A stretch of 64,000 bases of DNA from a candidate division WOR-3 bacterium (lineage in GTDB: Bacteria; Hydrothermota; 32-111). The stretch lies in assembly GCA_039804105.1 (NCBI GenBank), contig JBDRZU010000001.1:416001-480000 (forward strand). The letters are read 5' to 3'. This document shows positions 4,833-42,332 of this stretch, piece by piece. Under the pieces are notes generated by a model. The model was not told where the DNA came from. It did no database searches and saw only the letters and a list, made by a program, of their open reading frames with translations. The translations under genes and the position numbers were made by a program. The number at the start of each line of letters is the position of its first letter. Position 1 is the first letter of the stretch.

Positions 4833-4860
4833 TTATAGTTATTGAAAAAAAGGAGGTATT

Positions 4861-22563: not shown

Positions 22564-22606
22564 AAATGTTGTTAATTTAATAATGAAATTACACAAAGGG
22601 GCATTT

Positions 22607-22774: not shown

Positions 22775-22777
22775 TTT

Positions 22778-23743
22778 ATGGATTCAAAAAAACTTTTCCT
22801 GCTTTCAATTTTAAAAAGAGCAGAAATATATAATATATGCGGTAATTCAAAAAGGGGGCTAAAAGATATTGAGATAATATTAAGATCAAAAACAATTAAT
22901 AACTTTAAAAGTATAAAAGCTGCTTCTCTCATGTTAAAATCAGAAATTCTGGGAACGATTGGGAATTTTGAAAAGATGCAAGAATTAGTAATTGAAGCGA
23001 ATAAAATTTTTGAGGAAATCAACGATCTGGAAGGTAAAGCATCTGTTCTAACAACTTTATCTTTTCTAAAAACCTACAAAGGCGATTTTGATAGTTCAAT
23101 AAAAGATTTAAATCTATCATTAAAAATCTTGAAAAAATTGCACAATGAATATGAAATAGCAAATCTTTTGAACAATCTCGCATATCTATATGATTTGAAA
23201 AATGAAAAAAGGAAGGCACTTTATTATTATAAAAAAGCATTAGAGATCAGGAAAAAGATCAATGATTTGAAAGGTATCGGAGAAAGTTATAACAATATTG
23301 GTTTTATCTATGAGGATTTAAAAAATTTTAAAATCGCCATAAAATTTTACAAAAAATCATTAGAAATTCGAAAAAAAATTGGATATAAAAATGGTCAAGG
23401 GATTACCCTTGTGAATTTAGGATATCTTTACAAAAATTTAGGGGATATTAAGCGATCCATAAAATGCTTTTTGGATTCAATTGAAATTTTTAAAGAAATT
23501 GGGAATGATAATTACCTTTCCAAATCTTTTTATTACTTAGGGAATATTTATAGATCAATAAATGAGCTTGAACTATCATGTTTTTACTATATTGAATCTT
23601 TAAAAATTAAAAGAAGATTAAAAGAAACAAAAATCATTAAAGAAATCTTAACCAATCTAATCGATAACTATAACAGAATATCAGACAGAAAAAATATGAA
23701 AAAGTTTCAAAAATTATTTCAACAATATAATTCAGATAAATAA
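22778..23743 (+). CDS. Stand-alone tetratricopeptide repeat protein
   Basis: Repeats such as SYNNIGFIY..AIKFYKKSLEIRKKIG; N-terminus aligns with the TPR proteins at 33250 and 40944. Confidence 0.9.
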   Translation: MDSKKLFLLSILKRAEIYNICGNSKRGLKDIEIILRSKTINNFKSIKAASLMLKSEILGTIGNFEKMQELVIEANKIFEEINDLEGKASVLTTLSFLKTYKGDFDSSIKDLNLSLKILKKLHNEYEIANLLNNLAYLYDLKNEKRKALYYYKKALEIRKKINDLKGIGESYNNIGFIYEDLKNFKIAIKFYKKSLEIRKKIGYKNGQGITLVNLGYLYKNLGDIKRSIKCFLDSIEIFKEIGNDNYLSKSFYYLGNIYRSINELELSCFYYIESLKIKRRLKETKIIKEILTNLIDNYNRISDRKNMKKFQKLFQQYNSDK

Positions 23744-23798
23744 AATAAAATTACCAATAATGACCTTTCAGTTAAACTCTATAACTTTTATCGCTTTG

Positions 23799-24917
23799 TC
23801 AATTAAGATTTATAATACATTGCTTGCTTAAATTTTCATACTCTTCTAAAAGATTTTTTATCAACTCTTTTACTGACACTATTCTGTCAATAAGATAAGC
23901 GTTTGCACCACAAAAAGTAAAACCCTGTGTCAGTTTACCATTTTTCGCATTTGTTAGTGCAAGAGCAATGCAGTATGGGACCTTTTTAAAATCACATGTT
24001 GCTAAACATTTCCATGGACATTTGAATGGTTTTTTAATCCCTTCATATACTTCATTTATAAAATTGTTTTTTATAGCCCTTCCAGGTAATCCAACAGGAC
24101 TGTCGATTATCACTATATCATCCTTCTTGCATTTTAAGTATTCTTGTTTGAACTCATCTGAAGCATCACATTCAAAAGTTGCAACAAATCTTGTTGCCAT
24201 CTGAACACCACTTGCACCCATTTGTATAAACTTATAAATATCAGCACCATCAAAAATTCCGCCTGCAGCAATAACCGGAACTTTTTTATTGAATTTTTCT
24301 TCATAATTTTTTATCTCTAAAAGAACCTCAGGAACAATTTTTTCCAATTTGTAATTAGGATCATCTATGTTTTCTTTTTTAAATCCGAGGTGACCACCAG
24401 CTTTTGGTCCTTCGACAACAACAGCATCTGGTATCAAATTATAATTGTTTTCCCAATATCTAAAGATAACCCTTGCTGCTTTTGCAGATGATACTATAAC
24501 AACAAATTTTGTTGATGAATTTTTCATCATTTCAGTGGTCAATCTGTTAGGGTTTAAAAGCGGAAGTCCTGCTCCCATAAAAACAAGATCAACTTTCTCA
24601 TCAATTGCAGTCAACAAAAGTTCTTCAAAATCTGAAAGTGCAACCATTATATTAACACCTATAATTCCTTTCGTTTTCTCTCTTGCTTTTCTGATCTCTT
24701 TTCTCAATGCTCTTCTGTTTGCTTCTTTAAAATTGGTGACAAAATCTGGTTCAAGCATTCCAATTCCAGCAGCAGCGATAACACCTATCCCGCCTTCATT
24801 GGCAACTGCTGAAGCTAAACTTGATAATGAAATTCCAACTCCCATTCCACCCTGAACGATTGGAATTTTTGCAATGAAATCCCCGATCCTAAGTTCGGGA
24901 ATACTTTTTAAGTTCAT
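23799..24917 (-). CDS. Nitronate monooxygenase/FabK-like flavin oxidoreductase
   Basis: PIVQGGMGVG, VEGPKAGGHLG, IAAGGI, GVQMATRF, SPVGLPGRA. Confidence 0.92.
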   Translation of the reverse strand: MNLKSIPELRIGDFIAKIPIVQGGMGVGISLSSLASAVANEGGIGVIAAAGIGMLEPDFVTNFKEANRRALRKEIRKAREKTKGIIGVNIMVALSDFEELLLTAIDEKVDLVFMGAGLPLLNPNRLTTEMMKNSSTKFVVIVSSAKAARVIFRYWENNYNLIPDAVVVEGPKAGGHLGFKKENIDDPNYKLEKIVPEVLLEIKNYEEKFNKKVPVIAAGGIFDGADIYKFIQMGASGVQMATRFVATFECDASDEFKQEYLKCKKDDIVIIDSPVGLPGRAIKNNFINEVYEGIKKPFKCPWKCLATCDFKKVPYCIALALTNAKNGKLTQGFTFCGANAYLIDRIVSVKELIKNLLEEYENLSKQCIINLN

Positions 24918-24934
24918 TTTTTCTCCTTTTCATT

Positions 24935-24959
24935 TGACCATTTAAAATGATCATTTAAA
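24935..24959. promoter_or_regulatory. Putative operator (imperfect palindrome and tandem repeat)
   Basis: TGACCATTT-A-AAATGATCA palindrome overlapping TGA(C/T)CATTTAAA repeated at a 13-bp period, just upstream of the SD of the 24917 gene. Confidence 0.4.
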
Positions 24960-25296
24960 CAATTATTTTCATAAACCATATAAAATATCTTTCCTTTTGC
25001 CTCCATTTTAAATTTTGGGAATATTTTCGTTGAATCTTTTATAAAAATTTTAATTATTACCTCATGTAAATCTAAGAATAAAAAAATAATCCATAGAAAT
25101 CAGATTTTTAAAATTTAACCAACTTTTCAAAAATGTGAAAATTTGGGAAGGTTTTTAATTTATTACAAACAACTATCATTTTGATATTATCATAAACCCT
25201 ATTTTCTGAAAAGTCAATAAAAAATCACTTAAATAAATATTTTTCAATTATTTCTTTTAAAATCTTGTTTAAACATTTTTAATTTAAAAACAAAAA

Positions 25297-25689
25297 TCAT
25301 TTTTTTAACTTTTTAATTACTCTATACACAATTCTGAAAATACCAAAGATGATTAAAAATATTCCAAGATATCCTGTCAAATAGATAATCAAATTAAATG
25401 GATTTTTACGAAAAGAAATATTTACAAGAGAAACTGAAACAATAAAAAGAACAAAACCTAAAATTAATAGATCAACTCCACTAACATCAAAAAATTTTTT
25501 CACTCTTCTTTTTTTCTTTCGATCTTCACGAAATCCCAAAACTATTCCCACTATTATTATCAAAATTCCCAAAAATATAACTGCCTGTGTAATCAAAACT
25601 CCTAATTTCGCAACCAACATCCCAACAAGGAAAAATAAAATACCTGTTATCAAAAATGATGTCTTAATCAAAAAATTTTTATTCTTCAT
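25297..25689 (-). CDS. Hypothetical 4-TM membrane protein
   Basis: Four hydrophobic helices; overlaps the antiporter stop. Confidence 0.6.
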   Translation of the reverse strand: MKNKNFLIKTSFLITGILFFLVGMLVAKLGVLITQAVIFLGILIIIVGIVLGFREDRKKKRRVKKFFDVSGVDLLILGFVLFIVSVSLVNISFRKNPFNLIIYLTGYLGIFLIIFGIFRIVYRVIKKLKK

Positions 25690-26881
25690 TCATCTCCTCA
25701 AGTTTAGCATAAACATTAACATTCTCTTTTTCTTTTTTCATAAGATGTTTTGGAAGAAAGTAGAAGTTTGCAATCATGGTTGGAACAACAGCACTTGCTA
25801 TAACAGTTATAACAAGCAAGGAGTATTGTTGTTTGTTGATAATATTGTGTGAATAACCAAATAGAGCAGAAATCGTTCCAAAAGTTAAACCCGTTGACAT
25901 CAATAATGTATAATACCATCTCTCTTTTGAATCTTTTCTAAAAACACTTACTACAGGAAATAAACCAAAAATTTTTGAAATAACTTTACTCATAAATAGT
26001 ACAAAAAAAACTATTGGAGCAGAGATTAATGATGAAATGCCAACAAGAGAACCAGCACGAATAAAATAGAATGGTGTTAAAAATCCAACTGTTAAACTTC
26101 TTAATCTTCTAACCCAAATACTGTTTTTTGTCGCAAACTCAGCGAGTGCCATTCCAAGAATATATGCAGGTAATACTGCTTCACTACCTGCCCACAGAGC
26201 AAAAGCACTCATTGCAAAAAGAACAAATGAAACCCATTTGATCCTTATCGCAGCGGTTCTATTCCCATATATTTTTGTGATATACTGAGTAAAAATTGGG
26301 AACAATATGATTACAATAATTGTAAAGACAACAAAAATCAAAGTTTTCAGAGTGAAAGGTGAAAAAATAAGTCCTAAGGCAATCACAGTTCCAAGATCAT
26401 TTATAAAACATGAACCAAGAATTCCTTTCCCAAACTCAGTTTTGTTTAACCCAGTTTCTAACATAACTGAGTATACAACAGCCATAGAGGTGGTTGATAA
26501 AGCGATCCCTGCAAGTAAACTCGCTTTCACATCCCATCTTAGTAAAAAATATGATATTAGAGACGCCCCGATAAAAGGAGCAAAAAAACCGATAAATCCA
26601 ACAATAAAAACCTCTTTGAGTTTTACCTTTATCACTTTTGGATCAAGTTCAGCACCTGCAAGAAAAGTTAGAAATATTGAGCCGGTTGATGCGAGAAATT
26701 TTAACCACTCCTGATCGTTTCCAACAAGTTCACTTCCTAAAAATTTGTTTGAAAAAAAAGCAGCTAAAATTCCAACACATATCTCAACAAGTGCTATTGA
26801 GATTTTTAAATGGTATGCAATAATTGCTGAAATAACTGCTAAACAAAGCCATATCGACGCTATTATAAAAATATTTTCCAA
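25679..26881 (-). CDS. Cation:proton antiporter (CPA2 family)
   Basis: LTFLAGAE, ALSTTSMAVV, FINDLG, TPFYF; about 12 TMs; TTG start with AGGAG SD. Confidence 0.9.
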   Translation of the reverse strand: MENIFIIASIWLCLAVISAIIAYHLKISIALVEICVGILAAFFSNKFLGSELVGNDQEWLKFLASTGSIFLTFLAGAELDPKVIKVKLKEVFIVGFIGFFAPFIGASLISYFLLRWDVKASLLAGIALSTTSMAVVYSVMLETGLNKTEFGKGILGSCFINDLGTVIALGLIFSPFTLKTLIFVVFTIIVIILFPIFTQYITKIYGNRTAAIRIKWVSFVLFAMSAFALWAGSEAVLPAYILGMALAEFATKNSIWVRRLRSLTVGFLTPFYFIRAGSLVGISSLISAPIVFFVLFMSKVISKIFGLFPVVSVFRKDSKERWYYTLLMSTGLTFGTISALFGYSHNIINKQQYSLLVITVIASAVVPTMIANFYFLPKHLMKKEKENVNVYAKLEEMNEE

Positions 26882-27013
26882 AACTACTCCTGTTTTTGAC
26901 TTATATACTATTGTTTAATAAGTTAAAGTCAATAATTTTTGTGAAGTCAATCCACTTTTTAGTGTTGACAATTTTTATAATTCATTTTAAATTAAAAAAA
27001 TAGAGGAGAAAAC

Positions 27014-28210
27014 ATGAGAACAAAATTTTTATTATTAATCATTGTGTTACCATTACTAATTTTCTCACAAAAAGTAATAGATAAAAATAATTTCCATAGG
27101 GATTATTTTTTTGCTTATTATAATAATTACGATATAACTAACTCTTCTGAAAATTTCAGAACAGGTCTGAAAATTTTCAGTGATCTTTATTATAGAGGGA
27201 TTTCATCAAAAATTGACAATAGTTTTATTAAAGGAGTTCTTGGCTTCACATTCAGTTTTACATCAAGATGGTTTTCGATGTTATGGCCACATGAGTTTGG
27301 TCACTATCTAAGAGCAAAACAGGTTGGTGGAGATTTTTCATTTGTAAAATTTCAGTTCCCTGGTGTTGTTGGAGATATGGATTTACCTGTAGATGCTACA
27401 TTAGAAGATCACACTCTTGCGCTTATCGGTGGTTTTGAAGCAAACTATCTTACAACAAGAGATGTCCAATTTGATTTTTACAGGTTTGATGGACTTTATA
27501 ACGATGAATATGGGATGTCTTTTGGAAACAGAATAATGTATCCTTTTTATGCTTTTTTGATCGCGCAGCAGAATCCACAAGATCCACAAACATGGATAAT
27601 TTCAGGTGGAGATCCTGTAAATTTTACAAAACTTGTTTGGGAGATGAATGGAAGAAAAGTTTTCAATCCTGATAGTTCGATCAATGAAGGACTTGTAAAA
27701 TTCTATAACGATGCTGCTTACCTTTCAATCTTATGGAATCTTTTAGATATAAACCTTTATAAACAGGTTCTATCATATTTTGGTGATGAACTAAAAGGGA
27801 AAAAACCTTTTTATATTGGAGCTAAAAACCTTTTCTGGTCTTATGGAACATTTTTCAACACTTCACCACTTGGAGTTGAACTTTATTTTAGTAATTATTT
27901 AAAAGTTTATGATTACTTTATAAATCTTTATATTAGATACGGTTTACCATTCAAAAATAATGGCATCGGCCTTGCTCTTCCACAGGTTCTAAAATTTAAA
28001 AATATATCTTTCGGCTTAAATTCTGACTTCTGGACACAGGACTATTATGGTAAAGGTTTTCTTGTTTCAACCAATCTTTCATATCGAATGAAAGAAAAAT
28101 GGAATTTAGAAACACAAATAGGTTATAAAACAAAAGGCTATATACCTGGTAAAACAACAAAAGAAGGATTGTTGTTTTTGTTCGGAATCAGATATGTCTT
28201 TTTAGAATAA
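27014..28210 (+). CDS. Hypothetical exported protein with HEXXH motif and beta-strand-rich C-terminus
   Basis: Signal peptide, WPHEFGH, C-terminal amphipathic strands ending GIRYVFLE; GAGGAG SD. Confidence 0.65.
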   Translation: MRTKFLLLIIVLPLLIFSQKVIDKNNFHRDYFFAYYNNYDITNSSENFRTGLKIFSDLYYRGISSKIDNSFIKGVLGFTFSFTSRWFSMLWPHEFGHYLRAKQVGGDFSFVKFQFPGVVGDMDLPVDATLEDHTLALIGGFEANYLTTRDVQFDFYRFDGLYNDEYGMSFGNRIMYPFYAFLIAQQNPQDPQTWIISGGDPVNFTKLVWEMNGRKVFNPDSSINEGLVKFYNDAAYLSILWNLLDINLYKQVLSYFGDELKGKKPFYIGAKNLFWSYGTFFNTSPLGVELYFSNYLKVYDYFINLYIRYGLPFKNNGIGLALPQVLKFKNISFGLNSDFWTQDYYGKGFLVSTNLSYRMKEKWNLETQIGYKTKGYIPGKTTKEGLLFLFGIRYVFLE

Positions 28211-28263
28211 AAAAAGTAATTAAAAGTTCTTTTCTTTCTTGTTGTTTCAGTTTTTAAAAGTAA

Positions 28264-28749
28264 TTATTTTTTTCTGAGTTCATCTTTAATATCGTTAAGT
28301 GTTTTATTAATTTTTAACAGATAATCTAATATAAACATTTGACGGATAATCTGCCATAAAATAAAAATGCCAAGAATTAATATAAATCCTATATAAATTT
28401 GAGTAGATCTACCAGAATCTTTTATTTCTTCAATTATCTCGGGGAATATCATCTTTATACCAATTAAATTTATTGCTATTATCAAAACCATAAATATCAA
28501 TAGAATACTTAAATATTTATAATTATTTAAAACATTTTTTAAACCAAAATCATCACTATTTTTAGAAAAATTTATATTAAGGGAACCTTCTGATTTATTT
28601 ATTTTCGGTTTTTCTTCAGAAGTTTGTATAGCATCATCAGGCACTACATTCTCTTTTCCACAATAAGGACACCTTGCAATATCACCTATTTTGAGAAATT
28701 TTACAATGATTTCATTTTCACATTTTGAACACTTAAACTTTAAAGCCAT
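28264..28749 (-). CDS. Zinc-ribbon membrane protein
   Basis: CSKC..CPYC at the N-terminus and two TM helices. Confidence 0.7.
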   Translation of the reverse strand: MALKFKCSKCENEIIVKFLKIGDIARCPYCGKENVVPDDAIQTSEEKPKINKSEGSLNINFSKNSDDFGLKNVLNNYKYLSILLIFMVLIIAINLIGIKMIFPEIIEEIKDSGRSTQIYIGFILILGIFILWQIIRQMFILDYLLKINKTLNDIKDELRKK

Positions 28750-28771
28750 TTTTTCCCTTTTTTACATTACT

Positions 28772-29662: not shown

Positions 29663-29737
29663 ATTTAAATGATAATGGAAAATAAGGTAAAATCAAGAAA
29701 GAAGGTTGGGGGAATGAAGATTTTCTCTTAGTTACTC

Positions 29738-29795
29738 GGACTCGAGCCCCAACCTAATGGTTATCAGTCACTCGATCTACTGACTGAGCTACAGA
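29738..29795 (-). pseudogene. Degenerate partial copy of tRNA-Asn
   Basis: Minus strand TAGCTCAGTCAGTAGATCGAGTGACTGATAACCATTAGGTTGGGGCTCGAGTCC aligns to the D, anticodon and T arms of the tRNA at 32483-32558; acceptor 3' end missing. Confidence 0.8.
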
Positions 29796-29834
29796 AAGTT
29801 TTTTTCAAGAAAATTTATTTTCCCCCAATTTTGT

Positions 29835-30971
29835 TTATTCAATACTTTTCAAATGAATTTTAAAATTTAAAATCATATGAACAATTAAAGGGTATTGAGG
29901 ATTATCAAGTATAACTAAACGCTCACCGGTAGGAGCTTCACATAAAATACAATCCAAAACAATAACTTTATCTTTGTATTTAACTTTTACTTTCTTTTGT
30001 CCTTTTAAGAATAATTCTACTGGTGTTTGGTTTATTTCATCAGTATAGGGATAATATGTTACTTTCTTTTTCTTTTTCAATTCTTTAAACATATTTTGAG
30101 AACAAAAAACACTTGTCCCATCAGTTAAAACTAAAGGATCTGAATTACGTGAGCTATAAATATAATTATATTGATTAAGTGAATTTTTTAAAGCTTCACT
30201 TGAAATAATAATCTCACCACCTTTTTTACCCATTTTATACCACGAATAATGAATTTTATCAGATAATTCTTTTAATTCAAATGACATAGGTTCAAGATAA
30301 TTAATTGTATAATTTAATTTCGTGCCATCTTTTAACCAGTTTTTGTCGTCATTTTTATAAGATTTAAAATCTTCCCAGTATTCATTTCCTTTTGCATCAA
30401 TATATCCCAAATAACCATCAACACCTACCAAAGCCAATCCATTATCAAACATCCATGAACTATCATATTTATATGGTATAATCAAATTTCCCTTTGTATC
30501 AATATATCCCCAGCGATTATTCTTTTTTACAGATGCTAATCCATTTGAAAATGCTTGTGCTTCTTGATATTGAGGTTTGATCAACACATTACCGGTCTTG
30601 TCTTTATAACCATACAAACCATTTTCTTCAAAAACTTCTAACAACACTTCTGGTTGAACTTCCTGTTGTTGTTCTTCTGTTGAAGGAGGTTCAGATTCTT
30701 CTCCTTTTGTGTTTATAAAAAATACTTCATCATTTATGTTTACTATAGCAAAGCCATTATAGAATGGTTCCACAAAATCGTATTTACATTCGATCACTAT
30801 TTTTTTATTCCTATCACAGAATCCCCATTTATCACCTTTTCGATACGGTATGAGTTCAGGTGGTTCTGGAAGATTTTGTGCAAACAAAAAAAGTGCGTTT
30901 GAAAGTAAAAACCAGAAAAATAAAATTTTAGATAAACCTGAAAAAATTGAGGCCTTTTTTAAGTTTTTCAT
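29835..30971 (-). CDS. Exported WG-repeat protein, paralogue 1
   Basis: KWGFCD, LYGYKDKTG, WGYIDTKG repeats; GGTGG SD before MKNLKK. Confidence 0.85.
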   Translation of the reverse strand: MKNLKKASIFSGLSKILFFWFLLSNALFLFAQNLPEPPELIPYRKGDKWGFCDRNKKIVIECKYDFVEPFYNGFAIVNINDEVFFINTKGEESEPPSTEEQQQEVQPEVLLEVFEENGLYGYKDKTGNVLIKPQYQEAQAFSNGLASVKKNNRWGYIDTKGNLIIPYKYDSSWMFDNGLALVGVDGYLGYIDAKGNEYWEDFKSYKNDDKNWLKDGTKLNYTINYLEPMSFELKELSDKIHYSWYKMGKKGGEIIISSEALKNSLNQYNYIYSSRNSDPLVLTDGTSVFCSQNMFKELKKKKKVTYYPYTDEINQTPVELFLKGQKKVKVKYKDKVIVLDCILCEAPTGERLVILDNPQYPLIVHMILNFKIHLKSIE

Positions 30972-31108
30972 AAATACCACCATTCTTTTTTTAGGTTTAT
31001 TTAATTTTTGTTCTACAAATATTTTAAAAAAAAATAAATAAAAAATCAACCTGATAAAAACTTTGAAAACAGATATTTGACTATGAAATTAAAATTTTGA
31101 ATGTAATT
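30778..31108. repeat. ~330-bp direct repeat, copy 1 (upstream region, signal peptide and first WG repeat)
   Basis: Near-identical to 32070-32399, with about 6-7 differences by eye. Confidence 0.92.
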
Positions 31109-31162
31109 AGTTTATCTCTTCTTAATTTAAAATTTCTTTATACTTGTAAACGAATATCAATT

Positions 31163-32263
31163 TTAATCTTTATTTTCCTTCTCCATTATCTTTACAAGTT
31201 CTTCTATTCTTTCTAAAGTTTCTACTCCAAAAACTCCATCGTCTGTACTCAAATCAAGAAGTTCATACTTCTTTGATATCTTATTCAACTCTATTTTTAA
31301 TTCATTTACACTATTAAAATTTTCTATATCTAATTTTCTTATTTTCATCAATATATCCAATGCTACATATATTTCAACATCAAATTTTTCATCAGTTTCA
31401 ATAATATATCCAAGAATTTTTAACTTTTCATTTACTAAATTATGTAGATTTAAAATATCTCCTTTTGAATTTATACCAATTATTCCCAGGTTATAAAAAA
31501 AGTCTTTATTTGAATCTATAAAATTATTTATTTCTTCTAATTTAGCTACATTATATAAAGTTATAATATTAAATTTCAATCTAAATTCGCTTACATATTT
31601 TGTATAACTCACTAAAGTAAATAGATTACCATATCTTGAATTTATATCTCCCAAAATGTTACTATCGACTTCTTTTCCTGTTTTATCTATATAGAATTCT
31701 TTCCCATTCAATTTAACACGAGCAATACCATTAGAAAAATTAGAAGCTCTCTCATATTTTACAGGGATAACTTCTTTACCGTTCTTATCTATATAGCCAT
31801 ATTTGTCATACAATTCTCCATTTTTTTGAACAACAGCAAGACCTTCAGAAAAAGACCATGTTCCAACATATTTCATTGGAATTATTATTTTTCCCTTTTT
31901 GTTTATATATCCCCATATGCCGTTCTGTTCAACAGCAGCAAATCCTTCTGAAAAATTTCTTACTAAATCAAACTCCGGTGCTATAACTTCTTTTCCCGTT
32001 TTATCTATATATCCCCACTTGCCATTCAATTTAACTGCCGCAAGTCCTTCTGAGAAAGGCAGTGCACCATCATATTTACATTCGATCACAATTTTTTTAT
32101 TCCTATCACAGAACCCCCATTTATCACCTTTTCGATACGGTATGAATTCAGGTGGTTCTGGAAGATTTTGTGCAAACAAAAAAAGTGCGTTTGAAAGTAA
32201 AAACCAGAAAAATAAAATTTTAGATAAACCTGAAAAAATTGAGGCCTTTTTTAAGTTTTTCAT
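31163..32263 (-). CDS. Exported WG-repeat protein, paralogue 2
   Basis: FSEGLAAVKLNGKWGYIDKTG repeats; N-terminal ~63 aa shared with paralogue 1; unrelated C-terminus ending in DDGVFGVET (peptidoglycan-binding-like). Confidence 0.88.
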   Translation of the reverse strand: MKNLKKASIFSGLSKILFFWFLLSNALFLFAQNLPEPPEFIPYRKGDKWGFCDRNKKIVIECKYDGALPFSEGLAAVKLNGKWGYIDKTGKEVIAPEFDLVRNFSEGFAAVEQNGIWGYINKKGKIIIPMKYVGTWSFSEGLAVVQKNGELYDKYGYIDKNGKEVIPVKYERASNFSNGIARVKLNGKEFYIDKTGKEVDSNILGDINSRYGNLFTLVSYTKYVSEFRLKFNIITLYNVAKLEEINNFIDSNKDFFYNLGIIGINSKGDILNLHNLVNEKLKILGYIIETDEKFDVEIYVALDILMKIRKLDIENFNSVNELKIELNKISKKYELLDLSTDDGVFGVETLERIEELVKIMEKENKD

Positions 32264-32399
32264 AAATACCCCCATTCTTTTTTTAGGTTTATTTAATTTT
32301 TGTTCTACAAATATTTTAAAAAAAATAAATAAAAAATCAACCTGATAAAAACTTTGAAAACAAATATTTGACTATGAAATTAAAATTTTGAATGTAATT
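32070..32399. repeat. ~330-bp direct repeat, copy 2
   Basis: Near-identical to 30778-31108. Confidence 0.92.
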
Positions 32400-32482
32400 G
32401 ACTTTTACAATTGGATGGAACAATTAAAATAAATGTATTTTATACTGTTATAAGTTAATGGAAAGTTTTCGGATTTCTTTTT

Positions 32483-32558: not shown

Positions 32559-32677
32559 ATGCCAAATGTAAATACCAATTTTGAAATTTATTATATTAAA
32601 ACTTTACTGGTTGTCAATAGTAAAAATTTTTGTTGACTTTTTAGTTGAATCTGTTAATTTAAAAAAAAGGAGGGCTT

Positions 32678-33256: not shown

Positions 33257-34377
33257 GAGAAAATATTTTTATATTTTTGCTCAAACAAAATAACCTTCTC
33301 AGTTAAACTTTTTTCATCTTTGTGTTGTAAAATTATGTCGTATAAAATTTTTATGATTTCTTTATTTTCTTTTTTCAGAAATTTTTCAAATAATCTTAAA
33401 AAATATCTAAATGACTCTTTCATTCTATCACTTTTTTTAAAACTTTCAAAAAGTGAAATAAAGTTCTTATCAATATTTTGATAAAAGTTTATTTTGACCC
33501 TTAATCTAATCGCATCTTTTAAATATTTGATCGATTTTTCATAATCCCCTTTTTTTTCATAAACAACTCCTATAGAAGCAAGATTTAAAACTTCTGTTGA
33601 ATGATCAAAAATCTCCCTTTTAATCGGTAAAGATTCAAAAAAATATTCCAAACTTTTATCGAGTTCATTTTTAAAAAGATAAATATATCCAATGTTATAA
33701 ATAACCGAAGAGAGCATCTTTTTTTCACCTATCTTCTTCAATATTTCTTTCGCTTTTTCAAGGTATAAAATTCCATTCTCATAATCTTTATTTCTTGCAT
33801 AGATCATCCCTATGTTGTTCAAAGATTGTGCCTGTGCAAGTTTATCATCGATTTCGGTTCTGACTTTTAAAGATTCAAAATAAAAATTCAAGGATTTTTC
33901 ATTATCACCTTTTACTTTATAAACAAAACCAAGATTATTCAAAACAAATCCCAGCGCTCCACCTGCTCTACTTTTTTCTCCATTTTCATTTATTTGATAC
34001 TGTTTTATCAGTATTGAATAACATTCCTGAAGAATTTCAAGTTCTCTATCATATTCGCCTTTACTTCCAAGTGCCATCGCGTATGAATTCAAACTGTTCG
34101 CATAACCGGTTAAATCATCAACAGATTTAAAAAGTTCAGACGATTTTTTTGCATATAACATCATATTATCATAATCATTTAAAATTTCATAAGCTACAAC
34201 TTTTTCCATGTAAAGTTTAGCAAGATTATCAATAAGATTATTTTTTTCTGCTACTTTTTCACCCTCTTTAACATCTTTTAGTGCTTTATCGATTTTACCT
34301 AAAAGATTGTAAACTTGAGCCCTTGCTCTTAAAGTTTCGATAAAAATTATTTCAAAATCTTTTTTCATAATCAGCAT
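33250..34377 (-). CDS. Stand-alone tetratricopeptide repeat protein
   Basis: LNNLGFVY, SLNNIGMIY and YNIGYIY repeats; N-terminal motif shared with 22778 and 40944. Confidence 0.9.
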   Translation of the reverse strand: MLIMKKDFEIIFIETLRARAQVYNLLGKIDKALKDVKEGEKVAEKNNLIDNLAKLYMEKVVAYEILNDYDNMMLYAKKSSELFKSVDDLTGYANSLNSYAMALGSKGEYDRELEILQECYSILIKQYQINENGEKSRAGGALGFVLNNLGFVYKVKGDNEKSLNFYFESLKVRTEIDDKLAQAQSLNNIGMIYARNKDYENGILYLEKAKEILKKIGEKKMLSSVIYNIGYIYLFKNELDKSLEYFFESLPIKREIFDHSTEVLNLASIGVVYEKKGDYEKSIKYLKDAIRLRVKINFYQNIDKNFISLFESFKKSDRMKESFRYFLRLFEKFLKKENKEIIKILYDIILQHKDEKSLTEKVILFEQKYKNIFSQ

Positions 34378-34730
34378 ACATCAGAAATTTTATCGAGGAA
34401 ATGTTGTATCTCAACATTTCTACCCTCAGGATCTTTGATATAAAAATGGTATATTTTAAAATAGGTATTCGTTTTCAACTCAACTGTAACATAATCTTTT
34501 AACTTCTCATACATTTTTTCAACATCTTGTTTCGTTTCATAAAAGAATGTGATCACACCAGAATTTTCAACCATATCAGAATCACAAAAACCAAGCAGAA
34601 GATTTTCATATTTCAAAATCACACATTTTTTTTGATCAATAAAAACTTCCATTCCAAAATTTTCTATATAAAATTTTTTTATTTCTTGAAGATTTTTTGT
34701 TTTGAAAAAAATTATTCCCCCGTTTTTCAA
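34371..34730 (-). CDS. VOC/glyoxalase family protein
   Basis: KFYIENFGME..FYIKDPEGRNVEIQ. Confidence 0.85.
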   Translation of the reverse strand: MKNGGIIFFKTKNLQEIKKFYIENFGMEVFIDQKKCVILKYENLLLGFCDSDMVENSGVITFFYETKQDVEKMYEKLKDYVTVELKTNTYFKIYHFYIKDPEGRNVEIQHFLDKISDVC

Positions 34731-36472
34731 TCTTTCTCCTTATCTATAAAAATTTTATACTCTAAATCGTTTTTGTAAAGTTCATTATGTGAGCAACATC
34801 CTTTTGCATGTTGTTGATTTAGAAATATCACTTTATCCATATATTTGATCGTTGCCAATCTATGCGATACAACTATTGTGATTGACTCTTTCAGAAATTC
34901 TTTAAGTGAATCCCATAACTTCTTTTCGTTTCCAGTATCAAGTGATGATGTTATATCATCAAAAATAAGCAGTTCAGGTTTTTTCATCAACGCTCTTGCG
35001 ATCGAAATTCTCTGCTTTTGACCACCACTTAACGATGTTCCCCTCTGTCCCACCAAAGTTTCATCCTTTAAAAGAAACCTTTTGATCTCATCTTCCATAT
35101 TAATAATTTTTAAAACTTTTTCATAATAATCTTTCTCATAATCTTCAACTCCAAACAATATGTTTTCTTTCAATGTCCCAGAGAATAATAATGGCTCTTG
35201 CAAAACAAAACCAACCTTTTCTCTATAACTTTTTAAATCTATATCCTCAAAAGGTATTCCGTTTATCAAAATTCTTCCAGATGTTGGGATGAGAAATCCA
35301 GATAAAAGATTTAAAAGAGTTGATTTCCCTGCTCCAACCTGACCAACAATTATTATCTTTTCTCCTTTATTGAACTTAAACGAAAGATTTTCAAGAATCA
35401 GATTCTTCTGGTTGTATCCGAAAGAAACATTTTCAAACTCAATATTTTCGATTTTATCGATTTTAAGATTTTTGTTTGAATTATAGATCTTTACAGGATA
35501 ATCTTTTATCTCTTCAAGTCGATCGATGTTAACAAAAGATTGTTTCCCAGATACAAAAAGTTGTGGAAGGTCAAGAACAGGATAGATCAGTATCGAAAGG
35601 TATGTATAGAACGCATAAAAAGTTCCAACAGAGATTTCCCCTTTCAAAACAAGCATTCCACCATAAAGTATCACAACGATCTGCGCAATCCTATCAATAT
35701 ATTCATAAACAAGATTTATCAATGAGTTGAGTTTTATCAGATCGATTTCTGTTTTCATCCTTATATTCAATGCTTTTTCAAAAAATCTGTTGTACTGGCT
35801 CTCTTTGTTATATGACTTAATTATTTTGATCCCTGAAAAACTCATTTCAAGTTGATTGTTGATTTCACTTATCGCTTCCTGATTCATTTTGAACGAAAGA
35901 TAGAGTTTGCTGCTTAAAAGATAAAAGAAGAGAACCATCAGAGGTATAGGTAAAACCGAAAGTAGTGTGAGTTTCCAGTTCAAGAAAAACATCACAACAA
36001 GACAGAAGAATATTTTCGAAGATGAATCGAGTGCTCGAAATATACCCGAACACAAAAACCAGCATATTTTGGGGAAATCGGAAAGATCATCAGTTAATCT
36101 TGTGACAAGATCCCCTGTTCTAAAGTTGTTAAAAAACGAATAGTCCTTTTTGAGTATATATGAAAAATATTTCATTCTAAGTTTATTTTCAAATCTGTAA
36201 TTCATAAAAGCTCTCAATGTCGGATACATTCCTGAAAAAATTCTAACGATCCCAACACCGAGAAGAAAATATACAATTCTGTATATTTCTACCATCGGAT
36301 TTTTTATTTCTATTTTTGAATTCAAAATTTTATTAAGGTTATCAAACAGGATCTTAAAAACGAATGGATAGGCAACCGTTACAAATGTTGAAAGCAAAGT
36401 GATAAAAAATAAAAGTATTAAAAATCTTTTTTCCTCTTTCCAGACTTGCCAAATCCACTTAATATGTTCCAT
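34727..36472 (-). CDS. ABC exporter half-transporter (TMD plus NBD, degenerate Walker B)
   Basis: GQVGAGKST, LSGGQKQR, IFDDITSSLD, SHR. Confidence 0.93.
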   Translation of the reverse strand: MEHIKWIWQVWKEEKRFLILLFFITLLSTFVTVAYPFVFKILFDNLNKILNSKIEIKNPMVEIYRIVYFLLGVGIVRIFSGMYPTLRAFMNYRFENKLRMKYFSYILKKDYSFFNNFRTGDLVTRLTDDLSDFPKICWFLCSGIFRALDSSSKIFFCLVVMFFLNWKLTLLSVLPIPLMVLFFYLLSSKLYLSFKMNQEAISEINNQLEMSFSGIKIIKSYNKESQYNRFFEKALNIRMKTEIDLIKLNSLINLVYEYIDRIAQIVVILYGGMLVLKGEISVGTFYAFYTYLSILIYPVLDLPQLFVSGKQSFVNIDRLEEIKDYPVKIYNSNKNLKIDKIENIEFENVSFGYNQKNLILENLSFKFNKGEKIIIVGQVGAGKSTLLNLLSGFLIPTSGRILINGIPFEDIDLKSYREKVGFVLQEPLLFSGTLKENILFGVEDYEKDYYEKVLKIINMEDEIKRFLLKDETLVGQRGTSLSGGQKQRISIARALMKKPELLIFDDITSSLDTGNEKKLWDSLKEFLKESITIVVSHRLATIKYMDKVIFLNQQHAKGCCSHNELYKNDLEYKIFIDKEKD

Positions 36473-36473
36473 A

Positions 36474-38213
36474 TCAATCCTTTAAAATATGTTGCTTCAC
36501 AATATTTTGATATTCTTTCGATTTTTCAAGCAACTGCTTATGTGTGCCTGATGCTATTATGTTTCCATTTTCGAAAAGAAAAATCTTATCACAGTTGATA
36601 ACAGTTGATAACCTGTGTGCTATAATGATTGATGTTTTATTTTCAAGAATTCTATCAAGTGCATCGATAATTTTTTTCTCAGTCATTTCATCAATCGAAG
36701 ATGTAGCTTCATCCATTATCACAACAGATGCTTTTGAAAACACTAAAACTCTTGCCAAATTTATAAACTGTTTCTCCCCTGCTGAAATATTTCTGCCTTT
36801 CTCTTTGATCTCTCTGTATATCCCAAACTCATCACTAAGCAATGTCTCTCCATAAACATCTTTTAATGATTTTTTTACAATATCTTCAGAAATCTCTTCA
36901 TCGTATAATCTCACATTCTCAAGAATATCTCCGGGGAAAATTATTCCTTCCTGTGGAATATAAGCAAAAAGTTCTCTTAATGATTTTAAGTCATACTCTT
37001 TTAATTCAACTCCATCTATCAAAATTTTTCCTTTATAATTTTTGTAAAATCCAAGCAAAAGATTTGCAGTTGTTGTTTTACCACTTCCAGATGGACCAAC
37101 AAAAGCAACCTTTTCACCTGCTTCAATTTTAAAAGAAATATCTTTTAGTACCTGCTCCCCTTCCTTATATTCGAAAAAAACATTTTCAAACATTATATTT
37201 TGTTTTAGTTTCGTAATCTTTTTACTTCCTGAAAATGATTCTTCTGTTGGATTTTCTATTATCTTGAAAATTCTTTGTAGTGAAACAAAAGCCCTTTGAA
37301 ACATATTGAAATTTTCTGCAATCTGCATAATCGGTTCAAATAATCTCAATCCATACTGGATAAATATAACAAGTGTTCCAACAGTCAAAACTCCAGAAAA
37401 AATTTTCGGCGATATGAGTAAAATCACGATTATGATAAAAAGTGTTTCAACAAAAAATGTTTGTAAACTCCAGAACGAATATTCTATAAACGATGTTTTC
37501 GTTTCAACATTGAATTTTTCCTTCGATTTCATTTCAACAATATTTTTTATTTTTTCTTCTTTGTTAAAAAGTTGTATCACCATCATTCCCTGAATGTATT
37601 CAGTTAACTGTGCAGAAAGCTCAGCGTAAAGTTCTCTGACCTTTTTGAAAAATTTGGTCAGGTATCTGATCAAGAAAATCGAAAAAATAAAAACCAACGA
37701 TAAAGGAATAAGTAAAATTAAAGTTACAAAACTGTTTTTTAACATCAAAACTGTTATCATTCCTATAAAAAATATAATGTTCCCAAAGATCATTATCATC
37801 TGACTTGAAAATAGTTGCTTTACTCTTTCCCCATCACTTTCAACCCTTGCGATCAACTCTCCAACCTTCCTTGCATCAAAAAAACTGATTGGTAATTTTA
37901 ACATATGTGAAAAAAGATCCATTTTCAGAGATGTTATGAGTTTCAAACCAAGTCGGGCAAAGATTAAATTTTGAATGTATGTTAAAAAACCTGAGATAAT
38001 GATAACACCAACAAAAAAGGATGAATATTTTAATAGATCTGAAACACTTCCAGAAGGAATCGTTTTATCAACTATATGTGCAAGGATAAGGGGATCTACC
38101 AATCTTGAAATCGAAACGAGGATAGTGATGAGAAAACCTAATATGAAAAATAGTTTTTCTTTTTTTATGTAAAAGAATATCTTTTGAAAATAGTTTTCAT
38201 TTCTTTCTTTCAT
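36474..38213 (-). CDS. ABC exporter half-transporter (heterodimer partner)
   Basis: GPSGSGKTT, ISAGEKQ, MDEATSSID, AHRLST. Confidence 0.93.
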   Translation of the reverse strand: MKERNENYFQKIFFYIKKEKLFFILGFLITILVSISRLVDPLILAHIVDKTIPSGSVSDLLKYSSFFVGVIIISGFLTYIQNLIFARLGLKLITSLKMDLFSHMLKLPISFFDARKVGELIARVESDGERVKQLFSSQMIMIFGNIIFFIGMITVLMLKNSFVTLILLIPLSLVFIFSIFLIRYLTKFFKKVRELYAELSAQLTEYIQGMMVIQLFNKEEKIKNIVEMKSKEKFNVETKTSFIEYSFWSLQTFFVETLFIIIVILLISPKIFSGVLTVGTLVIFIQYGLRLFEPIMQIAENFNMFQRAFVSLQRIFKIIENPTEESFSGSKKITKLKQNIMFENVFFEYKEGEQVLKDISFKIEAGEKVAFVGPSGSGKTTTANLLLGFYKNYKGKILIDGVELKEYDLKSLRELFAYIPQEGIIFPGDILENVRLYDEEISEDIVKKSLKDVYGETLLSDEFGIYREIKEKGRNISAGEKQFINLARVLVFSKASVVIMDEATSSIDEMTEKKIIDALDRILENKTSIIIAHRLSTVINCDKIFLFENGNIIASGTHKQLLEKSKEYQNIVKQHILKD

Positions 38214-38287
38214 TTTAAGAATTATATAATTTGTGAAAATTATTACAACATATTTGATTTTTTTGATATTTTTTGTAAAATAATTGT

Positions 38288-40957
38288 ATGGGAGAAAATA
38301 AAAATATTTATAATCTTTTTGTCCCCGATATCTTTAAACAACTGAAAAACGAAAGTAAAATTTTTGATTCTTTTAACTGCTCTTCAATCTTTGTCGATAT
38401 TTCAGGATTCACAGCGATGAGTGAGAAACTTTCAAAACTTGGGAAAGAAGGATCAGAAGAGGTTAACAAAATTTTAAACTCTTATTTTGAAAATCTTGTA
38501 AAAATTACTTATTCGTATGGTGGTGATATTTATCGATTCGCCGGAGATGCTTTTTTTGCAATTTTCAAAGAGGATAACAAATTTTCATTAGATTCAAGAG
38601 AGAGAAGTTTGAACTGTTCTTATGATATTTTAAAGTATGTGAAAAAGAATGAGAATATAAAAACAAAAAATGGAAAGTTCAAAATCGGAGTTCATATATC
38701 ACTTGATTATGGAAAGGTGAACTTTTTTGATTTAAAATCAACATTTTTTGCAGGTGGTAAACCTTTAAACAAACTTATAGAACTATCCGACATTGCTAAA
38801 AAAGGTGAAATTATAACCACAACAGAGTTTAAAGAAGTAAAAAATTTTGTTTTCGAATCTGAAGGTGATTACTATAAAGTTTTGAGAAGAAAAAAGACCT
38901 CAAAATTCCAGATAGATCAGGATAAAAAAAATTTTCACGAAAACATTTTAGATGATTACATCCCTGTTTGGCTGAAGGAAAGGTTAAAATTAAAAAACAC
39001 TATTGATAGCAAGGATGGGGAACATAGAAAAATTTCTGTTATTTTCATACATCTGCCTCAAATTGACTATGAAAATGAACAGGAAAAAAGTTTACAATTT
39101 TTAAAAAACTATTACGAGATTATAAAAGAGTACTGTGAAAAATATGAGGGTATAATAACAAGCATAGATCCATACAAAGATGGAGAGAGATTTTTAATAA
39201 TATTTGGTTTCCCCAAAACCTATGAGGACTCTGAAATAAGATCTCTACTATTTTTAAACGATTTAAAACATGACTCAAGAATAGATTTTTCAAAACTCAA
39301 GGCAGGTGTGAATTCTGATTATGTTTTCGTTTCAATAATCGGAGGAAAAGAACGATATGAGTACACTGTTCTTGGAGATGGAGTTAACCTTGCTGCAAGA
39401 ATCGCAGCAAAATCGGAAACTGGACTTGTTTTGGTAAGTGAGAATATTTTTAATAAAACATACCATTATTTCAATTTCAAAAATTTTGGAGATCTTGAAC
39501 TGAAAGGAAAAGAAAAAAAAGAAAAGACATTTATACTTGAAAATAAAAAGGAATTGAAAAAAGAGAATATCACAAGATGGATATCACAAACGGAAAAAAT
39601 AATTGGAAGAGATCAAGAGATAAAAAGAATTGAAGAAACTTTTTCAAAAGTCAAAAATGGAAACGGATACATACTTTCAATAAGTGGAGAACCTGGAATC
39701 GGAAAATCAAGGCTCGTTGAAGAGATGATTAAAATTTCATCTGAAAATGAATTTTTAATTTTTAAAGGAGAATGCTTTTCCTATGGAAGTTCATTTTCAT
39801 ACCATCCATGGATTGAAATCTTGAAGGAAATTTTTGATTTAAAGCCCACCGATGATAGTTCAGCAAAAGAACAAAAGATTTTAAAATCTCTTGAAAATTT
39901 TGATCAGGAATTAAAAGAATGGGCTGCATTATTTGGGGAACTTTTAGGAATAACATTTCACGACCAATCAAACTTGAAATATCTCGATACAAAACTGAAA
40001 AAACAAAAAACTTTTGATGTTATAACCAAACTCCTATTGGAACTCTCAATGAAAAAACCTTTAAACATTATACTTGAGGATTTCCACTGGGCTGATTCAA
40101 TATCTTTTGAACTTTTCAATTTTGTTTCGAATAAAATTTCAGATCACAAAATTCTTTTAACTCTTGTTTACAGACCATCAAAGGATCTTGAGAATGCAGA
40201 AAAAAAATTCCAAACTGAAAAGATAGTGTTAAAAGAATTATCAAAAGAGGACTCTTTAAAACTCGTTAAAAACTTGCTCAACATTGAAAACATCTCCGAA
40301 AATTTTAAAGAACTGATCATCAAGAAATCTCAAGGAAATCCATTCTATATCGAGGAACTTGTGAAATCATTGATAGAACAGGGATATATAGAAGAAGCAG
40401 AAAATCAGTGGGAATTTAAGGGTGATATAGAACAACTCGTTCTTCCTGAAAGTGTTGAGTCGATCATCCAATCAAGAATAGATACTCTCGATTTTACAGA
40501 TCGAGATGTTATACAAACAGCATCAGTTTTAGGCAGAGAGGTTGACCTTGATATACTTGAAAACATTTATGAGAACAAAAAATTGTTAGAAGAGTCATTA
40601 AAAAATCTCGAAAGGTTTGATCTGATAAAAAAAAGTGAAACAGGTAAAAACACTTACTATTTTAAGCATATCCTGACACAGGAGGTTGCTTATGGAACAT
40701 TGTCGTTTGCAAAAAAAGAGGAGTTGCACAACAGAATAGGAAACTTTATTGAGGAAAAATATATAGATAATCTTGATGATTTCTATGAACTATTATCACA
40801 TCATTATTTTCATGCTAAAAATTATGAAAAATCCTTGCTTTACTCATATCACGCAGGAGAAAAAGCAAAAAAGATATATGCGAATGAGGATGCTATAAAA
40901 TATTTTACAAGAGCGATAGATTCCTATAAAAATTTAAAGAAAAATGTTACAAGGTAA
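38288..40957 (+). CDS. Tandem class III adenylate/guanylate cyclase domains plus AAA/STAND ATPase, lacking the TPR array
   Basis: C1: FVDISGFT and FAGDA. C2: EYTVLGDGVNLAARIA. ATPase: IIGRDQE, GEPGIGKSRL, ILEDFHWAD, SQGNPFYIEE, ASVLGRE, YFKHIL, YANEDAIKYF. Confidence 0.93.
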   Translation: MGENKNIYNLFVPDIFKQLKNESKIFDSFNCSSIFVDISGFTAMSEKLSKLGKEGSEEVNKILNSYFENLVKITYSYGGDIYRFAGDAFFAIFKEDNKFSLDSRERSLNCSYDILKYVKKNENIKTKNGKFKIGVHISLDYGKVNFFDLKSTFFAGGKPLNKLIELSDIAKKGEIITTTEFKEVKNFVFESEGDYYKVLRRKKTSKFQIDQDKKNFHENILDDYIPVWLKERLKLKNTIDSKDGEHRKISVIFIHLPQIDYENEQEKSLQFLKNYYEIIKEYCEKYEGIITSIDPYKDGERFLIIFGFPKTYEDSEIRSLLFLNDLKHDSRIDFSKLKAGVNSDYVFVSIIGGKERYEYTVLGDGVNLAARIAAKSETGLVLVSENIFNKTYHYFNFKNFGDLELKGKEKKEKTFILENKKELKKENITRWISQTEKIIGRDQEIKRIEETFSKVKNGNGYILSISGEPGIGKSRLVEEMIKISSENEFLIFKGECFSYGSSFSYHPWIEILKEIFDLKPTDDSSAKEQKILKSLENFDQELKEWAALFGELLGITFHDQSNLKYLDTKLKKQKTFDVITKLLLELSMKKPLNIILEDFHWADSISFELFNFVSNKISDHKILLTLVYRPSKDLENAEKKFQTEKIVLKELSKEDSLKLVKNLLNIENISENFKELIIKKSQGNPFYIEELVKSLIEQGYIEEAENQWEFKGDIEQLVLPESVESIIQSRIDTLDFTDRDVIQTASVLGREVDLDILENIYENKKLLEESLKNLERFDLIKKSETGKNTYYFKHILTQEVAYGTLSFAKKEELHNRIGNFIEEKYIDNLDDFYELLSHHYFHAKNYEKSLLYSYHAGEKAKKIYANEDAIKYFTRAIDSYKNLKKNVTR

Positions 40958-42332
40958 TGATCTAAAAGTTCTATATATAAAATCATTGATTTTAAGATCA
41001 GATGTCTATTCGCTGATTTCTGATAATAAAAATGCTTTAAAAGATATTAACGAAGCAAATAAAGAGATAAAAAAATTCAATGATCTGAAACTTCTTACAG
41101 ATATATTAATTCAGGAAAGTCAAATATACTTTTCACTTTCAAATTATGAAAAATCAAAAGTTCTGATTTTAAAAGCACAGAATCTCTCAAAAAAAAGAAA
41201 AGACAAATACGATCTTGCAAAATGTTATAATAGATTGGGTAACATATACAACTTAACAGGTGATTATAAAAAAAGTTTAAAATATTATTTAAAATCACTT
41301 GAAATTGCAAAAAACTTAAAACAACTTGAAGGGATAAGCGGAAGATACAATAATATTGGGTCAATCTATTACTATCTTGGAAACAACAAAAAAGCACTTG
41401 AGTATTATAAAAAATCACTCGAAATAAAATTGAAATTCAATGAGCCAAAAAGCATCGCTGTTACCTATAACAATATTGCAGTTGTCTATGAGAATTTGAA
41501 CGAATATAAGAAAGCTCTTGAATATTTTTTAAAAACAAAAGAATTACTTGAAAAAATTGGTTCTCCACTTGAAAAAGCAAGAAATCTTACAAACATTGGG
41601 AATATATACCTCGATATGGAAAAGTATGATAACGCACTCGAACTTTTTGAACAAGCAAAAAACATACAGGAAGAAATAAACGATAAACATGGTTTAACAC
41701 TCTCATATTACAACATTGCAACTGCAAAAACATATAAAGGAAATATCGATCAGGCAATAGAATTTTTAGAAAAATCTAATGAGATTGCAAATGAAGTAAA
41801 AGATTTAAGAAGATTGGGAATAAATCTTGTGGATATGGGATATCTTTACTTTGAACTCGAAGATTTAAAAAAAGTTGAAGAAATTTTAAAACAGGTTTTC
41901 TTTTATGTTAAAAAAGTTAACATTCCAGATCTGACTTTATGGTATCAAAATCTTTCAACAGAACTCTTTTTGAAGAAAAAGAATTTAAAAAAGGCTGAAA
42001 ATTTTTTGAAGTTATCTGAAAAAGTTTTAAAAAAATTCAATATTGAAAAAGAAAAAGCAAGATTTTTGGTTACAAAATCTAAATTCCTTGCTGCAAAAGG
42101 AGATTTTCAAACCGCAATAAATGAGATTAAAGAAGGTATGAAAATCTATCAAAAGATAAAAGACAATTTCAGTTTTTACAAATCATACATTGTTCTTTTA
42201 ACATACCTCTCACAAAAAGATAAAAAACTTTTTTCTGAGAAAGATTTCAAAAAAATAAAAAAATATTTTAAGAGTATTGATAATAAATTTTTTATAACTA
42301 AAATTGAATCACTTGAAAAGGAGTTGTTATGA
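40944..42332 (+). CDS. Tetratricopeptide repeat protein overlapping the cyclase-ATPase stop
   Basis: YNRLGNIY, YNNIGSIY and YNNIAVVY repeats; 14-nt overlap with the upstream gene. Confidence 0.9.
   Translation: MLQGNDLKVLYIKSLILRSDVYSLISDNKNALKDINEANKEIKKFNDLKLLTDILIQESQIYFSLSNYEKSKVLILKAQNLSKKRKDKYDLAKCYNRLGNIYNLTGDYKKSLKYYLKSLEIAKNLKQLEGISGRYNNIGSIYYYLGNNKKALEYYKKSLEIKLKFNEPKSIAVTYNNIAVVYENLNEYKKALEYFLKTKELLEKIGSPLEKARNLTNIGNIYLDMEKYDNALELFEQAKNIQEEINDKHGLTLSYYNIATAKTYKGNIDQAIEFLEKSNEIANEVKDLRRLGINLVDMGYLYFELEDLKKVEEILKQVFFYVKKVNIPDLTLWYQNLSTELFLKKKNLKKAENFLKLSEKVLKKFNIEKEKARFLVTKSKFLAAKGDFQTAINEIKEGMKIYQKIKDNFSFYKSYIVLLTYLSQKDKKLFSEKDFKKIKKYFKSIDNKFFITKIESLEKELL

Follow-up and report, generated by a model that had tools for sequence, protein, structure and literature searches.

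Single-chain proteins in which a nucleotide cyclase, an AAA_16 ATPase of the STAND class (signal transduction ATPases that have numerous domains) and a sensor made of tetratricopeptide repeats (TPRs) follow one another are common and unstudied; the mycobacterial Rv0386 family reportedly belongs beside them. Full-length mammalian soluble adenylyl cyclase (sACfl; ADCY10) is predicted to carry a STAND/P-loop region after its two cyclase domains C1 and C2, with a role that is still unknown (PMC12802110). For TPR-type STAND proteins, autoinhibition through contacts between the nucleotide-binding oligomerisation domain (NOD) and the sensor has been described (PMC6468293). Here we analyse a stretch of 64,000 nucleotides (nt), hereafter the window (G000:C1:416001-480000), from the genome of a candidate division WOR-3 bacterium, the assembly of which comprises 1.81 Mb in two contigs with about 29% G+C and is 85% complete. 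The named relatives of the window proteins are mostly from candidate division WOR-3 as well. The window encodes a protein with two cyclase domains and a STAND ATPase, P0004, referred to below as the core, and three proteins made of TPRs, P0001, P0002 and P0003, referred to as arms. The sequences make it rather probable that this is a naturally split, soluble-adenylyl-cyclase-like STAND cyclase with alternative TPR sensor arms acting in trans. The chances seem about even that one STAND cyclase core serves as a hub for several interchangeable TPR sensor subunits, giving a combinatorial receptor similar to the sensor/helper networks of nucleotide-binding leucine-rich repeat receptors (NLRs), the arms of which would be gained, lost, moved and re-fused. 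Other genomes are designated below by G numbers, this one being G000.

P0004 consists of a C1-like domain (residues ~16-135), a C2-like domain (~244-418) and an AAA_16 STAND ATPase (438-612), which are followed by a helical/winged-helix region and then by a first TPR-like repeat that closes the protein. Pfam recognizes Guanylate_cyc in two stretches, AAA_16 with 72.4 bits (cut-off 32.6) and NB-ARC with 25.8 bits (cut-off 23.5). No TPR family of Pfam matches P0004, i.e., the repeat sensor expected of a STAND protein is missing from the same polypeptide. The TOMM kinase/cyclase fusion family TIGR03903 reaches 241.8 bits on the core, below its cut-off of 705.75. Among solved structures, the best match of the core turned out to be human/rat soluble adenylyl cyclase ADCY10 (4oya/4clf, E ~5e-24). 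In phmmer, residues 16-135 align to the C1 domain of ADCY10 and residues 244-389 to its C2 domain, so that both cyclase domains are accounted for, and the two proteins have the motifs FVDISGFTAM, FAGDA and EYTV.G..VNLAAR in common. In an alignment of 40 orthologues of ~900 amino acids (aa), D37, D87, N367 and R371, which align to the same ADCY10 motifs, are invariant; we take the former two to be the metal-binding Asp pair of C1 and the latter two to be the Asn/Arg of the C2 motif VN.AAR. Residues G467, E468, G470, G472, K473, S474 and R475 of the Walker A sequence GEPGIGKSR are invariant too, as are D598, W601 and D603, and both Walker A and Walker B are present. At the very end of the protein, Y864, A865, N866 and A869 of the last helix are invariant and for E868, I870, T874, R875, A876 and I877 conservation is 90% or higher, which places this helix among the best-conserved parts of the whole core (the 40 split cores are 36-50% identical overall). 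P0004 thus appears to be a bacterial enzyme of the soluble adenylyl cyclase type (C1-C2 tandem) joined to a STAND ATPase. In this 85%-complete assembly it is the sole AAA_16 STAND protein in a TPR-less frame, and three proteins that bind cyclic nucleoside monophosphates (cNMPs) are encoded in the genome. As a separate observation, residue 83 of P0004 (GGDIYRFAGDA; C1 part, window 38288-38700) is an Arg that aligns to the Lys of GGDILKFAGDA in sAC, presumably the residue that binds bicarbonate.

The first-pass annotation of this DNA had claimed that P0003 begins where the cyclase-ATPase stops, and this is what the sequence reads: P0004 ends with ...YANEDAIKYFTRAIDSYKNLKKNVTR* and the start of P0003 lies 14 nt ahead of that stop, in the +1 frame, with an A-rich run adjoining the change of frame. 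The same arrangement, two genes in place of one, is found far beyond this genome. In a sample of 271 genomes of the phylum, orthologues of the core were detected at E<=1e-120 in 43 genomes, with 49 matches, one of which is a partial frame of 695 aa and three of which are fused proteins (1213, 1233 and 1248 aa); the other 45 lie in frames of 858-989 aa. When the C-terminal 290 residues of P0004 were compared with a protein database, 91 of the best 96 rows (43-100% identity) were proteins with cyclase and AAA_16 and no TPR domain, most of ~900 aa, and five were fused proteins of 1230-1459 aa. The core of G001 is 92% identical to P0004 and keeps the 14-nt overlap despite residue changes inside it. 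A TPR gene with the N-terminal motif described below stands directly behind the core in G001, G003, G019, G006, G009, G005 and G049; a short gap separates the two genes in G003, G019, G006, G009 and G005, and two TPR genes follow the core in G049 and G005. In G007 the TPR genes are upstream of the core. Compared between G000 and G001, the core has a ratio of non-synonymous to synonymous substitution rates (dN/dS) of 0.07, P0003 one of 0.11 and P0002 one of 0.09. The core tree joins the split orthologues with the fused ones in a single group, apart from the fused paralogues of this genome (support 100); at four or more points in it, fused proteins are nested among split ones. To judge from these comparisons, fission is the ancient, conserved and dominant form of the orthogroup, and the earlier claim of a real split between core and TPR part is borne out, with the addition that the split is conserved and old.

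Comparable fissions were noticed in other proteins. In G024 (L089, G024:C1, 1077-4195) a single-cyclase STAND protein of 620 aa ends with ...AINYYEKALKLIEE and is followed by an overlapping TPR gene of 424 aa; the boundary is the same as in the window and the paralogue family is a different one. In G059 and G030 (L088, G059:C7, 1402-4916; L090, G030:C3, 1257-4801) the cut in a single-cyclase STAND protein falls within the winged-helix region and the gene after it begins with ...YIFKHPLTQEVAYNSL, an independent fission at a different point.

The three arms match TPR families alone, with TPR_12, TPR_1, TPR_8 and others above their cut-offs. That they align from their first residues had been noted at first pass, with coordinates of four open reading frames (ORFs) and 30-aa strings that proved exact: pairwise BLASTP alignments are collinear from residues 1-7 onwards (25-31% identity, E 1e-24 to 1e-29), with no gap across the 30-aa motif and small gaps beyond it. 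The pattern written for this motif picks out only these three of the 3769 ORFs in the genome that are 60 aa or longer, but it had been derived from them. For this reason more weight falls on an independent hidden Markov model (HMM), built from the first ~95 aa of 16 relatives from other genomes with no window sequence and run against the same 3769 ORFs. Its three top domain matches are the N-termini of P0001, P0002 and P0003 (50.9-52.4 bits), and its fourth is the fused paralogue C2_267136 at residues 855-926 (37.9 bits), the junction where the core-equivalent part of that protein ends; internal TPR repeats score 29.5 bits at most. Since the N-termini and the fused junction outscore the internal repeats with an independent model, the start of the arm proteins is, at the level of sequence, a position-specific signature and more than any TPR. 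The concern that the motif might be a generic TPR helix is answered in part: the N-termini beat internal repeats, but one half of the motif has a generic TPR character. Across 21 TPR-only proteins, three residues of the motif, R14, G22 and D30 in the numbering of P0001, show a conservation of 90% or more. The fused orthologues run from ...AIEFFTRAI.SYE.L straight into the motif, which reads ELFISVLKARGEIYNLIGKYNKGIEEF in P0032 and KIFIKALSKRAEVYSLIGSNEKAMCD in P0087. Because they carry it internally at the same junction, the motif is best read as the first repeat of the sensor arm and not as a dedicated docking peptide, the genes having been cut just before it. A search for longer homologues of P0002 was dominated by CHAT/TPR proteins, and a search for related loci that started from a single protein gave none.

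One link between the dispersed arms and cores is their kinship. In 60 related genomes, the best relative of P0001 is the gene directly behind the core of the congener G003 (44% identity), and the two are joined in the TPR tree with a support of 100/100. P0002 has an orthologue in the same place in G001 (86% identical), and its next nearest relatives are the TPR parts of fused orthologues in G011, G008 and G012; in the tree it groups with the TPR part of the fused G008/G011 proteins (96/89). P0003, the arm adjoining the core, groups with a dispersed gene of G007 (96/92). Other groups are similarly mixed, one containing G010C12, the core-adjacent gene of G006 and the fused P0087 (100/99) and another the core-adjacent gene of G049 together with P0075 and P0088 (100/100). 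The type of arm does not always follow the core tree: the core of P0032 groups with that of G003, and its arm does not. The part of the first-pass proposal that concerned the dispersed genes is strengthened by these data, as both P0001 and P0002 have close relatives that adjoin or are fused to orthologous cores.

Co-occurrence was assessed by searching the 271 genomes with the N-terminal profile at E<=1e-17. The search gave 77 matches in 41 genomes. Of these, 63 are in frames of no more than 600 aa, spread over 33 genomes, and 19 of these rows belong to the profile itself. A count of orphan TPR genes against truncated cores had been proposed at first pass, and it agrees with the idea: a split core is present in 31 of the 33 genomes with TPR-only matches, an association that is overstated, as discussed below. 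The two exceptions are G010, where the core match is cut by the contig end, and G081, where the match is a 139-aa frame at a contig start. No such TPR-only match was found at this threshold in the other core-less genomes of the sample. Two members of the genus, G002 and G004 (99% complete), have no split core, and their best matches reach just 3.9e-11 and 1.3e-9 and sit in frames of 1236 and 1337 aa, respectively.

The arms differ widely in their placement. In G140, G146 and G138 the core is followed immediately by a tandem array of three to four TPR-only genes that bear the motif; in other genomes, TPR-only genes occur as pairs away from the core or singly between unrelated or housekeeping genes, and about half of the TPR-only matches (31 rows) are on contigs other than that of the core. 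When only non-training rows are considered, 11 dispersed genes score 70-95 bits vs. 67-92 bits for 13 adjacent genes, i.e., by these scores the N-terminal signature of dispersed genes does not fall short of that of adjacent genes. Across the genomes compared, arms adjoin orthologous cores, are joined to them in one chain or lie apart from them, and several of them occur per core. The arrays (L085, L086 and L087; G140:C1, G146:C11 and G138:C22) also hold members of 175-195 aa, which may be truncated arms. P0001 sits in a gene-sized indel of ~1.07 kb at a variable spot (window 22535-23833), where G001 has 62 bp. Between the 119-aa ORF and the small membrane ORF that are mentioned below as neighbours of P0001, G001 in turn has ~0.95 kb of additional DNA, in which a frame of ~315 aa is open. 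G003 (L077, G003:C7, ~4689-5000) contains a second arm gene directly behind the core-adjacent arm; it is decayed, being interrupted by in-frame stops, and its N-terminus is weakly similar to the P0002 type (44% identity over 34 aa).

We assume that P0001, P0002 and P0003 would each stack their first repeat on the last, nearly invariant repeat of the core (YANE[ED]AI.[YF]FTRAI), the YANEDAIKYFTRAI helix of which is the putative docking surface for the arm. Docking would rebuild an arm-sensor unit similar to that of MalT/PH0952. Autoinhibition enters the proposed mechanism because the NOD-sensor model is borrowed from MalT/PH0952 (PMC6468293): the sensor would keep the ATPase closed until a ligand binds, and its release would lead to nucleotide exchange, multimerisation and changed synthesis of cyclic AMP (cAMP). 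The three arms could then provide three input specificities for one core while rivalling for a single docking site, and some of them could equally be inhibitors.

Other explanations of the same data deserve consideration. It is unlikely, though worth serious thought, that P0003 is the only partner of the core, P0001 and P0002 being duplicates that have other partners or act as free scaffolds and that merely inherited the shared start. Such a history would fit the generic TPR character of most of the motif, the position of P0001 in a variable indel with no counterpart in the closest relative, G001, and the unrelated genes that adjoin both P0001 and P0002 outside the core operon. However, the dispersed genes do not score below the adjacent ones among the non-training rows (70-95 vs. 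67-92 bits), genes of the P0001 and P0002 types are adjacent to or fused with orthologous cores elsewhere, core-less genomes lack such a gene apart from the two contig-end cases, and P0002 is under purifying selection alongside the core in G001. In G003 the only arm next to the core is of the P0001 type, and in G008/G011 the covalently joined arm is of the P0002 type. This also bears on the idea that TPR-only proteins keep the true sensor off the core by competition, as inhibitors or decoys. Use of one common docking site, different arm lengths (321, 375 and 462 aa) and the short arm genes of 175-195 aa in tandem arrays would all be in line with decoys; yet arms that occur as the sole adjacent arm or as part of the core chain can be the main sensor, which makes the decoy explanation improbable.

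The tandem arrays of alternative modules behind the core gene invite a further interpretation, namely that the TPR-only genes do not work as separate proteins but form a silent store of cassettes, moved behind the core by recombination at the motif, in the manner of the orphan modules of polymorphic toxins. The arm type beside the core does differ between congeners, and G003 does contain a decayed extra arm gene. Nevertheless, the DNA of the motif is just 48-50/90 nt identical among the three window genes, with longest exact runs of 8-11 nt, and no conserved junction DNA was found; every arm gene has its own start codon (ATG), often overlapping the preceding stop, dN/dS is ~0.1, and there is no recombinase among the Pfam matches of the window proteins. 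Silent cassettes are therefore a very improbable explanation. Least credible of all, and close to negligible, is the view that the 14-nt overlap reflects a frameshift error, a recent pseudogene or a programmed +1 frameshift site. The frames do differ by +1 next to an A-rich run, but G001 keeps the overlap with substitutions inside it, core and arm are distinct genes in G003, G019, G006, G009, G005 and G049, with short gaps in five of these, nearly all orthologous matches (45/49) are split-sized, and both genes are under purifying selection. The kept overlap, the split-sized matches and the dN/dS values exclude a sequencing error or a recent pseudogene as the origin of the split.

Several observations weigh against alternative trans arms on a common core. 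Ten genomes with a split core gave no TPR-only match at E<=1e-17 in the 271-genome search (G037, G047, G076, G135, G136, G157, G165, G167, G257 and G261), and in G047, G025 and G037 the gene after the core is unrelated, with nothing TPR-like; for these two reasons a core might also work alone. The co-occurrence of arms and cores is inflated, since core-bearing genomes supplied the training sequences of the profile and related genomes do not count as independent. G001 lacks P0001, which is hence dispensable there, and the 85% completeness of the assembly means that further cores or arms may be unseen. The motif itself corresponds to the general TPR consensus from the conserved Arg (about profile position 14) onwards. 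In a library of 1.84 billion proteins, the 95-aa profile matches 121,862 proteins at E<=1e-3, and the best 150 library matches are long multi-TPR proteins aligned from about profile position 14, a search that favours such proteins, as scores add over repeats, and that is silent on N-terminal vs. internal placement. Finally, the conserved start could be mere inheritance from a duplicated partner gene.

The coordinates of the parts are collected in the table.

Table. Genes and elements of the proposed split cyclase system, with positions counted within the window
Feature	Position	Strand	Description
P0004	38288-40957	+	889 aa, split core: tandem cyclase and AAA_16 protein
P0003	40944-42332	+	462 aa, TPR-only arm adjoining the core
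P0002	33250-34377	-	TPR-only arm of 375 aa on the opposite strand; distance to the core 3.9 kb
P0001	22778-23743	+	TPR-only arm of 321 aa; distance to the core 15 kb
N-terminal motif of P0003 (residues 6-35)	40959-41048	+	exact string and profile match
N-terminal motif of P0002 (residues 7-36)	34270-34359	-	exact string and profile match
N-terminal motif of P0001 (residues 2-31)	22781-22870	+	exact string and profile match
Last conserved core helix YANEDAIKYFTRAI	40877-40918	+	conservation across 40 split cores

On its 5' side, P0001 is preceded by a small membrane ORF and a 119-aa ORF. The corresponding neighbours of P0002 are two ABC exporter genes and a 119-aa ORF. What might be left of a cyclase gene was looked for upstream of both P0001 and P0002, and nothing was found. 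The true start of P0002 may be its fourth codon, since the G001 orthologue has TTG at codon 1. An ORF of 244 aa (42329-43063) overlaps the stop of P0003 (ATGA) and encodes a hydrophobic N-terminus. No Pfam or NCBIfam family matches it and it has the look of a secreted protein, so it is not counted as part of the system. Elsewhere in the window, two WG-repeat (PF14903) genes on the minus strand (29835-31049 and 31163-32275) have no counterpart in the syntenic stretch of G001 and lie in another gene-sized indel (29795-32482). A bacterial serpin gene (PF00079, E 7e-101; 13297-14508) adjoins a gene (9258-13223) for an LVIVD-repeat protein of 1322 aa that carries a sorting domain for type IX secretion. 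In the region 58416-63915, a gene for a fused restriction-modification methylase of the Eco57I/MmeI type (1195 aa) neighbours one for a helicase of 640 aa whose C-terminal domain is Cas3-like, and the pair is a possible defence locus.

If the proposed arrangement is true, several arms per core would widen the input range of a second-messenger enzyme without duplication of the enzyme itself, and the system would be an example of NLR-like receptors made from exchangeable subunits. As core and sensor are separate small soluble proteins, the coupling between sensor, ATPase and cyclase becomes testable by mixing the parts.

Among known systems, sACfl is similar at the catalytic end, where both C1 and C2 align to P0004, and it too has a predicted STAND/P-loop region after C1-C2. 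However, sACfl is one polypeptide, and its short form arises by splicing and is without the STAND part, whereas the cut described here comes after the STAND module and leaves the sensor repeats as separate, multiplied genes. Single-chain cyclase-AAA_16-TPR proteins, four paralogues of which are encoded in this genome, have the same domain order, but their sensor is in cis, one per core, and here it would act in trans. MalT and PH0952 likewise have an AAA_16 NOD followed by TPR-like repeats; they differ in being single chains with transcription as output. In plant sensor/helper NLR networks many sensors feed one signalling core, and both partners are complete NLRs, whereas here the sensors would be bare repeat arms that complete a sensor-less core. 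Polymorphic toxin loci (Rhs/CdiA) have orphan C-terminal cassettes, arrays behind the core gene and a common junction motif; in contrast, the arm genes have no junction repeat at the DNA level, possess their own start codons and are under purifying selection. Full-text searches of the literature and term searches inside individual papers gave no account of a conserved split in trans in which one core has several arm genes; one paper just mentions that an Avs7/Dsr1 analysis dealt with 'split proteins'. Proteins that combine cyclase, STAND and TPR parts in a single chain are known, as is sAC, and what appears to be new is the conserved trans split with multiple arms per core.

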